64,000 bases of DNA from Escherichia coli. GTDB lineage: Bacteria; Pseudomonadota; Gammaproteobacteria; Enterobacterales; Enterobacteriaceae. How positions within the stretch are numbered: position 1 is the first letter of the stretch; each line of letters opens with the position of its first letter. The notes under the pieces are model-generated. The model was not told the DNA's origin and did no database searches. It saw only the letters and a program-made list of their open reading frames with translations. The stretch lies in NCBI RefSeq assembly GCF_013315695.1, contig NZ_CP054353.1; one strand, given 5' to 3'. Shown here one piece after another: positions 11,758 to 52,588 of this stretch. Both the position numbers and the translations under genes were made by a program.

Positions 11758-12115
11758 AGCTCCTCCTTAATGACAGGGTTGCGAAGCCCTGATTCTCTTC
11801 AGGGTGAATATTAAAGATAACACAAACATCGCGTAACGATTTGATAACAACCCAAATTGATAAAAGAGGAGAAACCTTGAGACAAAGCAAACAGCGGGGT
11901 CAGGGATCAGTGAGTAATGATCCAGAGGAGTTCGGCCCAGAAGAGCATCGACAGAGAAAATGCGCCCATCCAGGACCAATATTTCATATTTGTGTTGATC
12001 ATAGGCTACACCCTTAACGGTTATTACTTTGTGTTGAGATAACTCAACCTGTTATTGCTGCGGTGTATTAAAAGCCCTGTGATTCATTAAAAATGGGTAA
12101 TAAGAATGATGATAA

Positions 12116-26771: not shown

Positions 26772-26816
26772 ATGAAAGCAATTTTCGTACTGAAAGGTTG
26801 GTGGCGCACTTCCTGA
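26772..26816 (+). CDS. trpL: trp operon leader peptide
   Basis: 14-codon [17 protein letters not shown] with tandem Trp codons. Confidence 0.95.
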
Positions 26817-26857
26817 AACGGGCAGTGTATTCACCATGCGTAAAGCAATCAGATACC

Positions 26858-26887
26858 CAGCCCGCCTAATTAGCGGGCTTTTTTTTG
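26858..26887 (+). terminator. trp attenuator (3:4 terminator hairpin)
   Basis: cagcccgcctaattagcgggc followed by T8. Confidence 0.9.
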
Positions 26888-34629: not shown

Positions 34630-34921
34630 ATGAATCGTATTGAACATTATCATGACTGGTTACGTGACGCCCACGCAATGGAAAAGCAAGCCGAATCTAT
34701 GCTTTAATCCATGGCCAGCCGTATAGATAATTATCCTGAACTACGCGCTCGTATTGAACAACATCTTAGTGAAACCAAAAACCGATTGTTCAACTGGAAA
34801 CTATTCTTGATCGTAATGACATTTCACGTTCAGTCATTAAAGATTCCATGAGTAAAATGGCTGCGCTTGGGCAGTCAATCGGTGGTATATTTCCTTCTGA
34901 TGAAATAGTCAAAGGCTCTAT
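34630..34921 (+). pseudogene. yciE: yciE pseudogene: in-frame TAA at codon 26, 1-bp deletion frameshift, 3' end removed by IS1
   Basis: MNRIEHYHDWLRDAHAMEKQAESML* then YciE-like sequence continues in the same frame (SMASRIDNYPELRARIEQHLSETKN), then shifts frame (…SVIKDSMSKMAALGQSIGGIFPSDEIVKGS) until the IS1 end. Confidence 0.8.
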
Positions 34922-34976
34922 GGTGATGCTGCCAACTTACTGATTTAGTGTATGATGGTGTTTTTGAGGTGCTCCA

Positions 34977-35252
34977 GTGGCTTCTGTTTCTATCAGCTGT
35001 CCCTCCTGTTCAGCTACTGACGGGGTGGTGCGTAACGGCAAAAGCACCGCCGGACATCAGCGCTATCTCTGCTCTCACTGCCGTAAAACATGGCAACTGC
35101 AGTTCACTTACACCGCTTCTCAACCCGGTACGCACCAGAAAATCATTGATATGGCCATGAATGGCGTTGGATGCCGGGCAACAGCCCGCATTATGGGCGT
35201 TGGCCTCAACACGATTTTACGTCACTTAAAAAACTCAGGCCGCAGTCGGTAA
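34977..35252 (+). CDS. insA: IS1 InsA
   Basis: Identical translation to copy 1. Confidence 0.95.
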
Positions 35253-35674
35253 CCTCGCGCATACAGCCGGGCAGTGACGTCATCGTCTGCGCGGAAATGG
35301 ACGAACAGTGGGGCTATGTCGGGGCTAAATCGCGCCAGCGCTGGCTGTTTTACGCGTATGACAGGCTCCGGAAGACGGTTGTTGCGCACGTATTCGGTGA
35401 ACGCACTATGGCGACGCTGGGGCGTCTTATGAGCCTGCTGTCACCCTTTGACGTGGTGATATGGATGACGGATGGCTGGCCGCTGTATGAATCCCGCCTG
35501 AAGGGAAAGCTGCACGTAATCAGCAAGCGATATACGCAGCGAATTGAGCGGCATAACCTGAATCTGAGGCAGCACCTGGCACGGCTGGGACGGAAGTCGC
35601 TGTCGTTCTCAAAATCGGTGGAGCTGCATGACAAAGTCATCGGGCATTATCTGAACATAAAACACTATCAATAA
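35171..35674 (+). CDS. insB: IS1 InsB
   Basis: Identical translation to copy 1. Confidence 0.9.
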
Positions 35675-38246: not shown

Positions 38247-40100
38247 TTATGATGATGCCGGTGCATTTATCTCCAGCACCAGACTTTCTATCTCAACGCC
38301 ATACGCTGCATTTTTGGTAATATCCGTCAGCGTCAGCGCATTCAGCCCCAGTGTCAGACTGTCTTTTATGACCTGGAATGCCGGGCCAGCCACTCCATTC
38401 AGTTTCGGAGTAACCGTGGCACTGCCGGCGGTGAACACCAGCTCCAGCGTCTGCCAGTCGTTACTGTAATTCCCGAACTCGCCCAACTTTGTGTTTCCTG
38501 CTTTCTTGTGATGCATCAGATTCAGTTTGCCGTCTGTGGTCTGGGTGAAGAACGACATCAGGAACGGGTTACCAGTCCCGGTCATCGCCACGACGTCAGG
38601 TAACGCTACATCGGTATACAGATAAATTCCCAGACCGAACTGGTTGTTGGTCAGTGCGCCTGACAGTCGAAACTTACAGCTCAGTCTGCCACCCCGTGTC
38701 AGCAGGGAGACTGCGTCATCCACCGGGCGCGTCAGGGACCAGGCTTTATTGCTCTGCTTGGTGATCTTAAATACACCATCTGACAACTGAATTCCGCCAT
38801 TCTTAATGCTCCAGCCCTGCGCAGCAGCGTCTCCGGCTGTCGGCAACAGGGAGATTGTGCGTATGGATGCATCTTCAGACGGCCCCGATGGCGTGTCGCC
38901 GCCGGGCGAGGGTTTGATTTCCGGTGCCTTACCACTAATGAAGGCTAAGGTGCGACCGGCTACGTTCAGAATAGCAGTTGCCATACGATCGGGAATAATG
39001 CCACGACGCGCCCATGAGCTGAAATGCGTCGGGCGATTTGATGATACCCAGTTTTTGTTCGTTCGGGATGCCGAACCGTAATAACCAGACCCGGCAATAT
39101 CAGGATCTTCTGACGGGTTGTTTGTCGGTGTATTAACTCCGCTACCATCGGTCATAAAGGGAACAAAATAAATCTGCTGGGATTCTTTACCTTTATATGC
39201 ACCATATACCACTTCATATTGCGTACCGTGTTCTTGTTTCCACGCGTATGTCGTGTCGCCACAAATCCAGGGGACTGATGCCGGACTTCCACCGTGACAC
39301 TGCGCCGCCAGCCCGGCAAGGTCAGCACGGAACTGCTGTACCATTGCAAGAAATGCTGCTGGCTGCTGGGCGTAACTGGCATTCGTCATATCGAATTCCC
39401 CCTGCATCCAGCATATCGCCAGCAAAACGTTTTTCGGGTTTTTCTGCAATGCTGCCTTCGTGCGGAAAAGCAGATCCTGATATAACGGCTTACCCACTCC
39501 CCAGCGAGCCGAATCCTGACTGGCTCCCGTGGACTCGCTGAATGTCCCCTCCGTGCCCTGGGTGAATGCCGAACCACCACGACAGCATGGTACCAGCAGG
39601 ATCCCCGCATTATTAGGGATATACGGAAGCAGTTTTTTGGCAATATGTAAGCCCTGTCCGACACAGCCGTACTGCCCTTTGCTCAGGTCAGCCCGGGGAT
39701 GGTTAATCGTACTCATATCCTGAACATCATGCAGACAATGGTCAGCAGGAATGATGTCGTTAAATACGCATACTTCACCACCGGGAGTCACTGTGTTACG
39801 ACGGGCCAGTTGCTTAATGCGCGGATGGGGCGCATCGTATGAATCCGGAAGCGGAAGCCCTTCACCGTAAGCCATGGCATTGGATTGCCCGGCCAGTACG
39901 ATGACGTAGTACCACTCCGGCTCAGTTGCACCACTGACGACCACATCACCTTCTGCTGCAATCGCCTGCATCAGGGTATAAGGGGTTATGGCCACCGGAC
40001 TACCAAACGGCTGCCAGCCCTCCTTCAGTTTTTGTGTCAGTCGTTTCGCAAGGTCTGACGGCGATGCCGCCCTGACCACGTCATAGTGTTTAAATGCCAT
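38247..40100 (-). CDS. prophage sialate O-acetylesterase NanS-p (N-terminal DUF1737-like, SASA/SGNH esterase domain)
   Basis: 617-aa ORF; N-terminus MAFKHYDVVRAASPSDLAKRL…; VIVLAGQSNAMAYGEG esterase motif; located between tRNAs and holin as in Stx-type phages. Confidence 0.8.
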   Translation of the reverse strand: MAFKHYDVVRAASPSDLAKRLTQKLKEGWQPFGSPVAITPYTLMQAIAAEGDVVVSGATEPEWYYVIVLAGQSNAMAYGEGLPLPDSYDAPHPRIKQLARRNTVTPGGEVCVFNDIIPADHCLHDVQDMSTINHPRADLSKGQYGCVGQGLHIAKKLLPYIPNNAGILLVPCCRGGSAFTQGTEGTFSESTGASQDSARWGVGKPLYQDLLFRTKAALQKNPKNVLLAICWMQGEFDMTNASYAQQPAAFLAMVQQFRADLAGLAAQCHGGSPASVPWICGDTTYAWKQEHGTQYEVVYGAYKGKESQQIYFVPFMTDGSGVNTPTNNPSEDPDIAGSGYYGSASRTNKNWVSSNRPTHFSSWARRGIIPDRMATAILNVAGRTLAFISGKAPEIKPSPGGDTPSGPSEDASIRTISLLPTAGDAAAQGWSIKNGGIQLSDGVFKITKQSNKAWSLTRPVDDAVSLLTRGGRLSCKFRLSGALTNNQFGLGIYLYTDVALPDVVAMTGTGNPFLMSFFTQTTDGKLNLMHHKKAGNTKLGEFGNYSNDWQTLELVFTAGSATVTPKLNGVAGPAFQVIKDSLTLGLNALTLTDITKNAAYGVEIESLVLEINAPASS

Positions 40101-40330
40101 GAATCCTCCCGGGCGGGATAATGTTGTGAGTCAGATAAGGAGCAGGCTGAAGTCCGGAAGTTACAGGACAATGGCAGAAGGGAGACTACAGCCCGCAATT
40201 CGAAAAAGACCGCGCAGTTGCGCAGAGTGATTACTATGGGGTATTATTCGCCAGCTGAAATATTACTTCACGTTTTATTGTTTATTCCTTGCCGCCCGCG
40301 TCTCCCAGCGCGGGCTTTTTTTGTCCATAA

Positions 40331-40568
40331 GAAAGCCCCTCCGGAGAGGGGCTAAAGCCGCGTATCTGTATCATCATGCACATGGTGCCGGGTGCCTCCC
40401 GGTGAGTTCAGCCCGGTGCCACTAAACCCGCGTCATTCTCGTTTTGATAATCAGAGATTATACCGTCACCAGTCGCCCCTCCGCTCAGGGGGATTCACCA
40501 TGCGAAATTTTTTTAACAAATGCCCAGTCTGACAGGCAACTGTCAACTTACTGAATTGTGAGCAACAT
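40331..40568. repeat. hairpin-rich noncoding repeat unit, copy A
   Basis: Shares blocks aaagcccctccggagaggggct, catggtgccgggtgcctcccggtga, cccctccgc.cagggggattcaccatgc, ttttaacaaa, ctgaattgtgag with copy B. Confidence 0.7.
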
Positions 40569-40815
40569 AGCATTTAACGGGGAACCTGTTTTCTGCAGTA
40601 AAAAGGCCCACCGGAGCGGATGGGCCTGGAAGGATAGCGGTCATGTGATGCCGGTTTCCCGGTAACTCAGCACCGGTATCTGAGTCAACGTTTTCTCTAC
40701 TGGGTCATTTCCGATACGCCCTGCCTGCTGACAGGCTTTCATCACATCTGAAAATATAGCACCCTGACTGATACTGTAGTACCTAAGGTTCCAGAAACTG
40801 TGATGTATCCGGCAC

Positions 40816-41036
40816 AGAAAAGCCCCTCCGGAGAGGGGCTGGAGAGTGGCGCTATGTGCCATTGCATGGTGCCGGGTGCCTCCCGGTGAATTCAGTACCA
40901 GCACCTGAATCCGCGATTATCCCATATACCTACTCGCTGATTGCCCCTCCGCACAGGGGGATTCACCATGCCAGTTTCTTTTAACAAACTCCCCGCAAAC
41001 CAGACAACAGTCAACCGCCTGAATTGTGAGACATTT
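40816..41036. repeat. hairpin-rich noncoding repeat unit, copy B
   Basis: Degenerate direct repeat of copy A (~485 bp period); a third partial copy of the ccgg-hairpin block lies at ~40690..40740. Confidence 0.7.
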
Positions 41037-41074
41037 AAAAAAAGCCCGCAAAAGCGAGCCAGGGAAAATAAGTG

Positions 41075-41151
41075 TGGCGCGTTGTACTGGATTCGAACCA
41101 GTGACCGATTGCTTAGAAGGCAATTGCTCTGTCCGGCTGAGCTAACAACGC
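41075..41151 (-). tRNA. tRNA-Arg (anticodon UCU)
   Basis: Manual fold: acceptor GCGTTGT/ACAACGC, D-arm GCTC..GAGC, anticodon stem ATTGC/GCAAT with loop CTTCTAA, T-arm ACTGG TTCGAAT CCAGT, CCA end. Confidence 0.9.
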
Positions 41152-41164
41152 AGGATACAGATAA

Positions 41165-41241
41165 TGGACCGCCTTCGGGGACCCGAACTCCGCGCAACCA
41201 GCTTCGAAAGCTGGCGCTCTTTCCTGATGAGCTAATGGCGG
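41165..41241 (-). tRNA. tRNA-Arg-like (anticodon UCG), possibly degenerate
   Basis: Perfect anticodon stem CCAGC/GCTGG with loop TTTCGAA, but one mismatch each in acceptor and T stems and T-loop TTCGGGT lacks the conserved A58. Confidence 0.5.
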
Positions 41242-41248
41242 TATGTGA

Positions 41249-41324
41249 TGGTGGCCCTTGCTGGATTTGAACCAGCGACCTGGCGATTATGAGTCGCTCG
41301 CTCTCACCACTGAGCTAAAGGGCC
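41249..41324 (-). tRNA. tRNA-Ile2/Met type (anticodon CAU), ileX/ileZ-like
   Basis: GGCCCTTTAGCTCAGTGGTGAGAGCGAGCGACTCATAATCGCCAGGTCGCTGGTTCAAATCCAGCAAGGGCCACCA; near-identical to remembered E. coli tRNA-Ile2 (k2CAU). Confidence 0.85.
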
Positions 41325-41373
41325 GGGAGCAGAATAATAATGGTGCGTAATTAATTCTGCAATCTCATCCGTT

Positions 41374-42423
41374 TCAAACGATTAAATCCTGAACTTCCCT
41401 GACTGTCTGCTCAAAACGTCCGGTCTCCAGTTCAACGCCAATCGCACGACGCCCAAGCGCCAGTGCCGCTTTTACCGTTGAACCTGAGCCCATAAAAAAA
41501 TCTGCAACCAGGTCACCCGGACGACTGCTTGCGCTGATTATCTGCTGCAGCATTTCTGCCGGTTTTTCGCACGGATGTTTCCCGGGATAGAACTGCACCG
41601 GTTTATGTGTCCACACATCCGTGTACGGCACCTGCGCCGTCACACCAAAATACCGCCGCAGATGCTTATATTCACTCTGCAGCTCCACATACTGCCGGTT
41701 CAGTGACGTATACGTATCCACCAGCTGGTGGTGGGGCTTTTCCAGTTCACCGCGCTGATGTTTCTCTTCTGCCACCCGGGCAAACAGCGACTGTAATTTC
41801 AGATAATCGCTTTCGTTCGGTAGCTGCCACTGACTGGCACTGAACCAGTGCGACACCATGTTTTTCTTTCCTGTGGCATCTGCAATCTGTTTTGCCGTTA
41901 TCCCCAGGGCAGCGCGCGCATCACGAAAGTAAGAAATCAGCGGGGCCATCACATGCTGTTTCAGTGCACTGCCCTTCGCCGCATACCCGGCATCTTTCGG
42001 ACGATACGGCCCCTGATAATGTTCCGCGAACAGAATGCGCTCTGTGGCGGGGAAATACGCCCGCAGGCTTTCCTTGTTGCATCCGTTCCAGCGTCCGGAC
42101 GGCTTCGCCCAGATAATATGGTTCAGCACACTGAAGCGTTCACGCATCATGATTTCGATATCAGATGCCAGGCGATGACCACAGAACAGGTAAAGACTTC
42201 CGACAGGTTTCAGCACCCGCCAGAACTGCGCCAGACACTGGTCCAGCCACTTCAGGTAATCATCGTCGCCCTTCCACTGGTTATCCCAGCCCTCAGGCTT
42301 CACTTTAAAGTACGGCGGGTCCGTGACTATCAGGTCAACAGAATTTTCGGGTAACGACCGGATAAATTCCAGGCAGTCGGCGTTGATTAACTCACAACTG
42401 GATATTTTTACAGTATTAAGCAT
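41374..42423 (-). CDS. orphan DNA methyltransferase (N6-adenine/N4-cytosine class, DPPY motif)
   Basis: 349-aa ORF with DPPY catalytic motif (LIVTDPPYF) and C-terminal AdoMet-binding FxGSGST motif; no adjacent restriction endonuclease gene. Confidence 0.8.
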   Translation of the reverse strand: MLNTVKISSCELINADCLEFIRSLPENSVDLIVTDPPYFKVKPEGWDNQWKGDDDYLKWLDQCLAQFWRVLKPVGSLYLFCGHRLASDIEIMMRERFSVLNHIIWAKPSGRWNGCNKESLRAYFPATERILFAEHYQGPYRPKDAGYAAKGSALKQHVMAPLISYFRDARAALGITAKQIADATGKKNMVSHWFSASQWQLPNESDYLKLQSLFARVAEEKHQRGELEKPHHQLVDTYTSLNRQYVELQSEYKHLRRYFGVTAQVPYTDVWTHKPVQFYPGKHPCEKPAEMLQQIISASSRPGDLVADFFMGSGSTVKAALALGRRAIGVELETGRFEQTVREVQDLIV

Positions 42424-45534: not shown

Positions 45535-45690
45535 TTACTCCTCAGGTTCGTAAGCTGTGAAGACAGCGACCTCCGTCTGGCCGGTTCGGAGTCGTACCTC
45601 GCAGAGGTCTTTCCTCGTTACCAGTGCCGTCACTATGACGGTTAAACAGATGACGATCAGGGCGATTAACATCGCCTTTTGCTGCTTCAT
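45535..45690 (-). CDS. hok: Hok/Gef-family type I toxin (HokD/RelF-like)
   Basis: MKQQKAMLIALIVICLTVIVTALVTRKDLCEVRLRTGQTEVAVFTAYEPEE, essentially the remembered HokD sequence; extended upstream frame (to 45747) corresponds to mok-like leader. Confidence 0.9.
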   Translation of the reverse strand: MKQQKAMLIALIVICLTVIVTALVTRKDLCEVRLRTGQTEVAVFTAYEPEE

Positions 45691-45927
45691 AGCCTGCTTC
45701 CCCTTGCCTTTCGGCACGTAAGAGGCTAACCTACATTTGTGAGACATAGATTGGGCCTCAGATTAATGTTAAGCGTCTTGCAGGACGCGAAATGTTAACT
45801 GGGGCTTTTCTCTATCTGCCTTTCAGTGTTCATGCCTGAGACAGATAGCCTCAAGCACCCGCAGCCATTCTACTTAACTCACGTCACCTCGCCAATATGA
45901 AATCAATCAGAAAGGTGATCCATAAAA

Positions 45928-46614
45928 TCACTCCTTCTCTTCTTTTCCGTAGTGGAGTTGGCCAATTTTGATAAGAGGGCGTCCCTGAGATTTGCGGTGT
46001 AGATTGGTATCGCGCAGAGAATACACACAGCCACAATATTCCTGCTGATAGAATTTTTCGCGCTTGCTGATTTCAATCATACGGGACGAGCCGCCCTGCT
46101 TGCGCCAGTTATAATCCCAGTACACCATACCCGGATAATGCGCAACAGCTCGCCGCCCACACTCGTTAACCTGCTGCATATTTTTCCAGCGTGAAATGCC
46201 CAGTGAACTGCTGATCACACTGAAACCATTTTCAGCAGCGTACAACGCTGTCCGCTCAAAACGCATGTCAAAACACATGGTACAACGGATCCCCCTCTCA
46301 GGCTCCCATTCCATTCCTTTGGCACGTTCAAACCAGTTGTCGGTGTCGTAATCAGCATCGATAAACGGCACGCCGTGTTGTTCAGCAAAGCGAATATTTT
46401 CATCCTTACGAATTAAATACTCTTTCTGAGGATGAATGTTCGGGTTGTAGAAAAAGATGGTGTAGTCGATTCCCGAGGCCTGAAGCGCCTCCATCACTTC
46501 ACCGGAACATGGAGCACAGCAAGAGTGCAGTAGTAGTTTGTTTGCCCCGTTTGGGAGCTCCAATTTAGGCCGTTTGAAATCAGCAATAGTCATAAATATT
46601 TTTATTGGGGTCAT
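45928..46614 (-). CDS. QueH-like (DUF208) putative epoxyqueuosine reductase
   Basis: 228-aa ORF with [11 protein letters not shown] motif plus additional Cys clusters (CTMCFD, YCGC) recalled as QueH/DUF208 signature; not verified by search. Confidence 0.5.
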
Positions 46615-52056: not shown

Positions 52057-52588
52057 GGGTCAGGTGGAGTGCGTGCGCCGGACACGGGTGAGCATCCGGC
52101 ACTGACAGCTTACTGAAAGGATATGTCCCTGAAAAGTCAGGGCATAACGCGAAAGCGCACGGCGAAATTGGTCTCTCTGTACGGTGTCGTTAAATTTAGT
52201 TCGACCGTGCGCTTCCGGTTGTGGCACTCCGCGAAATGGCGCGGCGGTAAGTATGGCTGGGGTTTCCTCCATTGCTCCAGAAAATGCACCGGGTTGTCAG
52301 GTTGACCATACGCTTAAGTGACAACCCCGCTACAACGCCCTCTGTTATCAATTTTCTGGTGACATTTGGCGGTATCAGTTTTACTCCGTGACTGCTCTGC
52401 CGCCCTTTTTAAAGTGAATTTTGTGATGCGGTGAATGCGGCTATGCGCACGCGGAACAGTTAAAGCAGTAAGGCGGTATTTTACGGGCGTAACGAGCATC
52501 AACTAACCCGGCGTTAATTGTTAACTGGTTAACGTCACCTGGAGGCACCAGGCACTGCATCACAAAATTCATTGTTGAGGACGCGATA

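Follow-up and report, generated by a model that had tools for sequence, protein, structure and literature searches.

The middle gene of the three-tRNA cluster found at positions 41075–41324 (minus strand) of the window, a 64,000-nt stretch of an Escherichia coli chromosome (contig NZ_CP054353.1 of assembly GCF_013315695.1), is argN of the phage-borne ileZ-argN-argO module, and it carries three derived, uncompensated substitutions that damage its tRNA structure. As judged from sequence comparison, this argN is probably a hypomorph or an early pseudogene within a known cluster (we estimate the probability of this reading at about 0.68). The cluster itself is already known and named, and the exact sequence present in the window is annotated in hundreds of RefSeq genomes. 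Mildly new is the quantitative side of the picture: the argN slot appears to be the expendable member of the trio and is decayed to varying degrees in many prophages.

Composition and identity of the tRNA cluster

Exactly three tRNA genes were detected by ARAGORN in the 64-kb window, all of them on the minus strand, and PGAP annotation gives tRNA for each. The gene ileZ (41249–41324) belongs to the tRNA-Ile2 type with the anticodon CAU (Met/Ile2(cat) in the ARAGORN output), argN (41165–41241) is a degenerate allele of tRNA-Arg(UCG), and argO (41075–41151) encodes a tRNA-Arg(UCU) with a canonical cloverleaf. The CCA end is encoded in all three genes, which are separated by spacers of 7 and 13 nt. 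The Rfam scores (model RF00005, gathering score 29 bits) are 72.5 bits for ileZ, 42.9 bits for argN and 70.1 bits for argO, with whole-window E-values of 6e-14, 9e-06 and 3e-13, respectively. An unusual C1-G72 pair and U73 as the discriminator base are present in argN. The assignment of ileZ is in agreement with PGAP/tRNAscan-based annotation as tRNA-Ile in 3 genomes and with the name ileZ in GenBank phage records. The pairs C4-G69 and C5-G68, which along with a CAU anticodon are the determinants of TilS, are present in the ileZ sequence and identify an Ile2-type body, distinct from that of an elongator or initiator tRNA-Met. The A27·C43 combination of ileZ is constant among the 99 prophage clusters described below. 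A permissive Rfam search for non-tRNA RNA families over the cluster returned sub-threshold chance matches only. The open reading frames overlapping the cluster (e.g. 40941–41270, plus strand) have no RefSeq annotation and were discarded as mechanical.

The 301-nt cluster matched 289 phage records, nearly all from Stx-converting or related lambdoid phages, with 93–95% identity for the best of them, and the genes are named ileZ, argN and argO in several of the matched GenBank records. [quoted passage not shown] The annotation of VT2-Sakai lists a putative tRNA promoter, tRNA-Ile (L0100 of 933W), tRNA-Arg (L0101), tRNA-Arg (L0102), a rho-independent terminator and stx2A, in this order, and the window aligns base for base with the trio of 933W and VT2-Sakai, terminator included. 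Gene order, homology and context all identify the trio as the ileZ-argN-argO module of Stx-type lambdoid phages. The initial annotation had suggested this identity, and its proposal is borne out by the identity level over the 301 nt and by the same position in the late region; the span 41075–41324 and the three anticodons that it gave coincide with those of ARAGORN to the base.

The cluster shares with 933W (L0100–L0102), VT2-Sakai and Stx2a phages the order, strand, spacing and anticodons (CAU, UCG and UCU) of its genes as well as the promoter-like element and the terminator. As in Stx phages, the trio is located between Q (in many phages together with a DNA methylase) on one side and the nanS/yjhS esterase and the genes for lysis on the other. 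Unlike in Stx phages, the prophage of the window has no stx operon, two STnc100-like sRNAs being found there, and it is a remnant cut by IS1. The decoding roles of ileZ and argO are the same as those of chromosomal ileX/ileY (AUA) and argU (AGA/AGG), but in contrast to the latter both genes are phage-borne extras. E. coli is not known to possess a native tRNA-Arg(UCG), because CGA is read by the ICG tRNA.

Promoter-like element and terminator

A promoter-like element (41334–41362, minus strand) is located upstream of ileZ. It consists of TTGCAG (41362–41357), a 17-nt spacer and TATTAT (41339–41334), is separated by 9 nt from the first base of mature ileZ and is the counterpart of the “putative tRNA promoter” of VT2-Sakai (AP000422). 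The consensus scan missed this element because its -35 hexamer matches at only 3 of 6 positions. In the alignment the TTG and TTATTAT columns are unchanged in four upstream backbones that are divergent elsewhere; this invariance of the TTG-17 nt-TATTAT arrangement supports a putative dedicated promoter of the trio. Homology between the backbones ends just upstream of the element, which makes the tRNA module resemble a cassette exchanged by recombination, presumably with its own promoter. In O157:H7 TW14359, the exact window allele of argN follows another Q and other upstream genes, which indicates that recombination carries the module from one backbone to another. Directly after argO, the terminator scan revealed an intrinsic-terminator-like structure (41036–41060, minus strand), formed by the hairpin GGCUCGC-UUUU-GCGGGCU (41060–41043) and the following U7 tract; it aligns with the “possible rho-independent terminator” of VT2-Sakai.

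With this arrangement the trio may be transcribed from its own promoter, within a Q-dependent late transcript, or in both ways, and the transcript may either end at the hairpin after argO or read through it. The CCA-encoding precursors would be cut into three tRNAs. C34 of ileZ would be converted to lysidine by TilS, after which AUA would be read, and argO would read AGA/AGG. A copy of argN would read CGA/CGG, yet the allele present here is degenerate.

Structural defects of argN

The anticodon arm of argN is perfect (CCAGC/GCUGG with the loop UUUCGAA), and so is the D arm. Position 32 is U in the window allele and C in most alleles. Full pairing of all four cloverleaf stems is not attained: the sequence, the cmscan alignment and the ARAGORN drawing display an A6·A67 mismatch in the acceptor stem (41236/41174) and an A52·C62 mismatch in the T stem (41189/41179). 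Some tRNAs remain functional with a single A·C or A·A mismatch. The T-loop TTCGGGT (UUCGGGU in RNA) departs from the conserved U54-U55-C56-R57-A58 pattern, with G58 (41183) replacing A58. A58 provides a near-universal tertiary contact in tRNA. Among the 82 distinct tRNAs recognized by ARAGORN in all sampled loci, the 7-nt T-loops contain A58 in 53/53 non-argN tRNAs, and G58 occurs in argN alleles only.

The elements A20, C35 and G36 (or U36) determine tRNA-Arg identity for ArgRS of E. coli, and they are preserved in argN: its D-loop AUCAGGAAA has A after G18-G19 (A20), and C35 and G36 belong to the anticodon UCG. General tRNA models accept the gene as well (42.9 bits in Rfam, i.e. above 29; ARAGORN; tRNA-Arg in PGAP). 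All features ascribed to the middle tRNA by the initial annotation, namely a perfect anticodon arm, mismatches in the acceptor and T stems and a TTCGGGT loop lacking A58, are confirmed by these data. The opposite outcome that it had considered, i.e. three canonical tRNAs of high confidence, holds in part: PGAP reports three tRNAs, but the score of the middle gene lies about 15 bits below that of intact argN and about 28 bits below those of its neighbours. A search of the accessible literature for ileZ, argN and argO yielded nothing on the function of argN.

The divergence of argN from 933W/VT2-Sakai is much higher than that of its neighbours. There are 0/76 differences in ileZ (100% identity) and 1/77 in argO (A37 versus G37; 98.7%), whereas argN has 8/77 (89.6%), at positions 17, 20a, 32, 44, 52, 58, 63 and 67 (Fisher p = 0.0008 for the excess over the neighbours). 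The 933W-type argN forms a clean cloverleaf with the T-loop UUCGAGU. In the window allele, the structure-damaging changes are G52A (T-stem pair), A58G (conserved T-loop base) and U67A (acceptor pair). G52, A58 and U67 are found in all intact argN alleles and in the Lys(UUU) and Arg(UCU) homologues occupying the same slot, so the alignment identifies A52, G58 and A67 of window argN as derived. Intermediate alleles are present too: Nil3 has A52 alone, and the IMG/VR alleles L106 and L112 have G58 alone on perfect stems. Sub-alleles of the window-type lineage have acquired an additional G50A (37.5 bits) or a change of CCA to UCA. Segregating sites within the clade of window-type alleles, which includes 12 loci only, number 4 in argN, 4 in argO and 1 in ileZ, too few for constraint to be detectable.

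The cloverleaf of window argN is predicted by ViennaRNA to be 8–11 kcal/mol less stable than that of intact alleles. The predicted MFE structure contains an alternative 5-bp hairpin (41174–41187, minus strand), in which U54-G58 pairs with C63-A67 around the loop GUCC. Its pair probabilities are 0.5–0.8 in the window allele, where it dominates the predicted ensemble, 0.00 in 4 natural comparison alleles and not higher than 0.2 in the in-silico revertants G58A and A67U; it is the derived G58 and A67 that make this hairpin possible. Thermodynamic folding was nevertheless rejected as a decisive test of function. A poor T stem is predicted for the accepted 933W allele as well, and no cloverleaf is obtained as the MFE structure of the healthy ileZ and argO. 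Because the same method mispredicts the accepted 933W allele, the folding results carry little weight.

Compared to the host ORFs of the window, the prophage ORFs are enriched in AGA (2.8-fold), AGG (3.6-fold), AUA (1.6-fold) and CGG (2.6-fold), as counted in a small sample. The explanation that codon usage makes argN dispensable was considered and found unsupported: CGG is among the codons enriched in prophage genes, so the demand for a CGR reader is not obviously gone.

Decay of the middle position in related prophages

Prophage loci were collected from IMG/VR by an exact match to the 3' end of ileZ, and the 99 clusters that also contained argO were analysed. Because the sampling depends on that match and includes genomes related to one another, the counts do not represent independent events. 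In the 99 clusters, argN is as variable as the spacers, with a nucleotide diversity (pi) of 0.191 against 0.18–0.20; the values for ileZ and argO are 0.009 and 0.033. ARAGORN recognizes ileZ and argO in 98/99 clusters each and argN in 67/99; the middle tRNA is no longer recognizable in 31 or 32 of them. With “fully intact” meaning full pairing, a T-loop with A58 and the CCA end, 42/99 argN genes and, as judged from the alignment, 76/99 argO genes are fully intact (ileZ was not scored owing to its constant A27·C43). The three genes are not maintained alike: ileZ and argO hardly vary, but the argN slot changes as fast as the spacers do and often holds a remnant.

The Rfam scores of argN alleles form a graded series. 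Intact alleles have 58 and 56 bits, alleles with G58 only 54 and 49.7 bits, the window allele and its C32 variants 42.9–43.4 bits, and the window type with G50A 37.5 bits; remnants with the anticodon arm replaced or deleted fall below 29 bits. In the 37 distinct argN alleles of 77 nt, 95.8% of the cells are paired and four pairs exhibit compensatory double changes; this covariation supports a genuine tRNA ancestry of the argN family. The 6-67 and 52-62 pairs depart from pairing solely by unpaired cells, and compensation is observed in no allele.

The commonest form of the middle slot, seen outside the window (e.g. in the IMG/VR loci L053, L045, L052 and L059), is an 80-nt sequence. It keeps the acceptor stem and the D arm of argN along with a T-arm-like hairpin (6-nt loop GCGGGU), in place of the anticodon arm it has another hairpin, of 7 bp and with a loop of 3 nt, and its score is below the Rfam tRNA threshold. 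In L127 (PPompW_EH2201, 1501–1576) and in several IMG/VR loci, the slot after ileZ is occupied by argN homologues of about 77% identity with a switched anticodon (Lys-UUU or Arg-UCU); downstream of some of these the set of tRNAs differs as well (Thr-UGU and others). By these comparisons, the position after ileZ changes its identity as well as decays.

Among 5,426 complete E. coli genomes, at least 558 carry the window allele of argN (at least 99% identity over 87 nt), annotated there as tRNA-Arg, and 277 carry the 933W allele. The 80-nt remnant-like form, which has no annotation, occurs in 912 genomes at 99% identity or higher and in 1,813 when any identity is allowed.

Functional state of argN

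The three derived substitutions would break a T-stem pair (G52A), abolish the T54-A58 contact (A58G) and break an acceptor pair (U67A). They suggest that argN is most likely poorly folded, processed or charged and hitch-hikes with its two conserved neighbours. Of the two options left by the initial annotation for the middle tRNA, the decaying copy is favoured, for its three derived and uncompensated lesions stand within a graded decay series across prophages. In this respect the gene resembles prophage tRNA pseudogenes and remnants: the argN scaffold is recognizable, the mismatches are uncompensated, a conserved loop base is lost, and related copies are found at every stage. In contrast to such pseudogenes, window argN is above the tRNA thresholds and has an intact anticodon arm and CCA end, which would correspond to an early stage of a presumed pseudogene.

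It is conceivable, though rather unlikely, that argN is still a working, sub-optimal tRNA-Arg(UCG), processed, charged by ArgRS and reading CGA/CGG, in which the mismatches and G58 are tolerated. Recognition by ARAGORN, Rfam (42.9 bits) and PGAP would fit such a tRNA, as would the perfect D and anticodon arms, the retained A20/C35/G36 and CCA, and the CGG enrichment in prophage genes. The occurrence of the exact allele in at least 558 genomes and on at least two prophage backbones could mean that it is tolerated or even useful; alleles with G58 only and perfect stems do exist, and the folding argument against function is weakened by the T arm of 933W, which nearest-neighbour folding also mispredicts. 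However, A58 is retained in all 53 other sampled tRNAs, and three damaging derived changes have accumulated within 77 nt of argN, compared to 0 and 1 changes in the neighbours. The further damage gathered by sub-lineages, CCA loss included, and the evolution of the middle slot at the spacer rate also argue for decay. Far less probable is that window argN is a selected, non-decoding tRNA-like RNA whose T arm refolds and which acts as a decoy, as a processing signal or as an evader of nucleases or host factors. All three lesions do shift the predicted fold in the same direction (A52 weakens the competing T stem), and the alternative hairpin reaches about 0.8 in the window allele versus 0.00 in four natural alleles. 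The allele is also widespread and identical across backbones, and the Lys-UUU and Arg-UCU homologues mark the slot as an evolutionarily active position. Nevertheless, the UUCGA/UCGAA segments are near self-complementary in any T arm, so that such a hairpin easily arises by chance; the G58-only and A52-only alleles indicate that the changes arose separately; later sub-alleles display miscellaneous damage and no conserved new structure; and no Rfam match other than tRNA was found over the cluster. None of the observations calls for such a role. That the cluster features reflect chance similarity or an error of sequencing or assembly is practically excluded by E-values of 9e-06 to 6e-14 and by the identical sequence in hundreds of independently assembled complete genomes.

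If the non-decoding reading were true, the middle slot would be a conflict-driven, fast-evolving position (Arg-UCG, Lys-UUU, Arg-UCU and the 80-nt cloverleaf-like remnant); this remnant, which lacks an anticodon loop, is found in roughly one third of the complete E. coli genomes. For T4, T5 and similar phages, it was proposed that phage tRNAs replace host tRNAs cut by anticodon nucleases. The resemblance of the present cluster to these systems concerns the general idea only, namely tRNA sets shaped by conflict and not by codon supply, and lies in the switching of the slot between Arg-UCG, Lys-UUU and Arg-UCU.

Under the preferred reading, that of a hypomorph or an early pseudogene, the unequal maintenance of the trio has two probable consequences. 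Where annotations treat argN as a working tRNA-Arg(UCG), the decoding capacity credited to many E. coli strains is probably too high, and selection on these prophage tRNAs appears to be directed at AUA and AGA/AGG rather than at CGA/CGG.

Prophage and genomic context

The window is a part of the E. coli chromosome. Strain MSB1_4I alone matches its trp-to-lysis junction over the full length; several further genomes, CE10 among them, share the 4.5 kb surrounding the tRNAs at 100% identity. The gene order was taken from the RefSeq annotation of identical DNA, the sRNAs from Rfam and the hairpin from the terminator scan. Along the minus strand, RusA, the Q antiterminator, a small ORF and a DNA methyltransferase (41374–42423) are followed by tRNA-Ile and the two tRNA-Arg, and then by the terminator-like hairpin, two STnc100-family sRNAs, a SASA/nanS-type esterase (38247–40100), holin, lysozyme and Rz. 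The tRNA trio is located within the late region of a lambdoid prophage beside ompW, and stx is absent from this prophage. IS1A (~34977–35674, within the interval ~34630–35674, plus strand) is flanked by a truncated yciE pseudogene and the prophage Rz. It removed everything past Rz and a part of yciE, and the prophage is left without packaging, head and tail genes; in CE10 the same late module is found in a prophage with the head and tail genes still present.

The interval from argO to the esterase gene, which holds stxAB in Stx phages, contains here the two STnc100-family copies (40810–41000 and 40323–40532, minus strand; 136 and 165 bits, respectively). A 2026 bioRxiv preprint (10.64898/2026.05.13.724894) links STnc100 to the prophage PasD sRNAs and points out that they are associated with esterase genes.

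Several other elements were observed in the window. A homologue of the epoxyqueuosine reductase QueH, a tRNA-modification enzyme, is encoded in the prophage (~45928–46593, minus strand) a few kb upstream of the tRNA cluster and adjoins a hokD/sok toxin-antitoxin locus (sok at 45685–45860). The DicF sRNA (52354–52405, plus strand; 77 bits), with dicB nearby in the identical DNA of CE10, marks the Qin-like region for immunity and inhibition of cell division in this prophage. Host DNA of the window contains the STnc180 sRNA (11863–12075, minus strand; 183 bits) and the trp leader (26793–26886, plus strand; 89 bits), the latter setting the chromosomal location as trpLEDCBA-yciGF-[IS1]-prophage-ompW.
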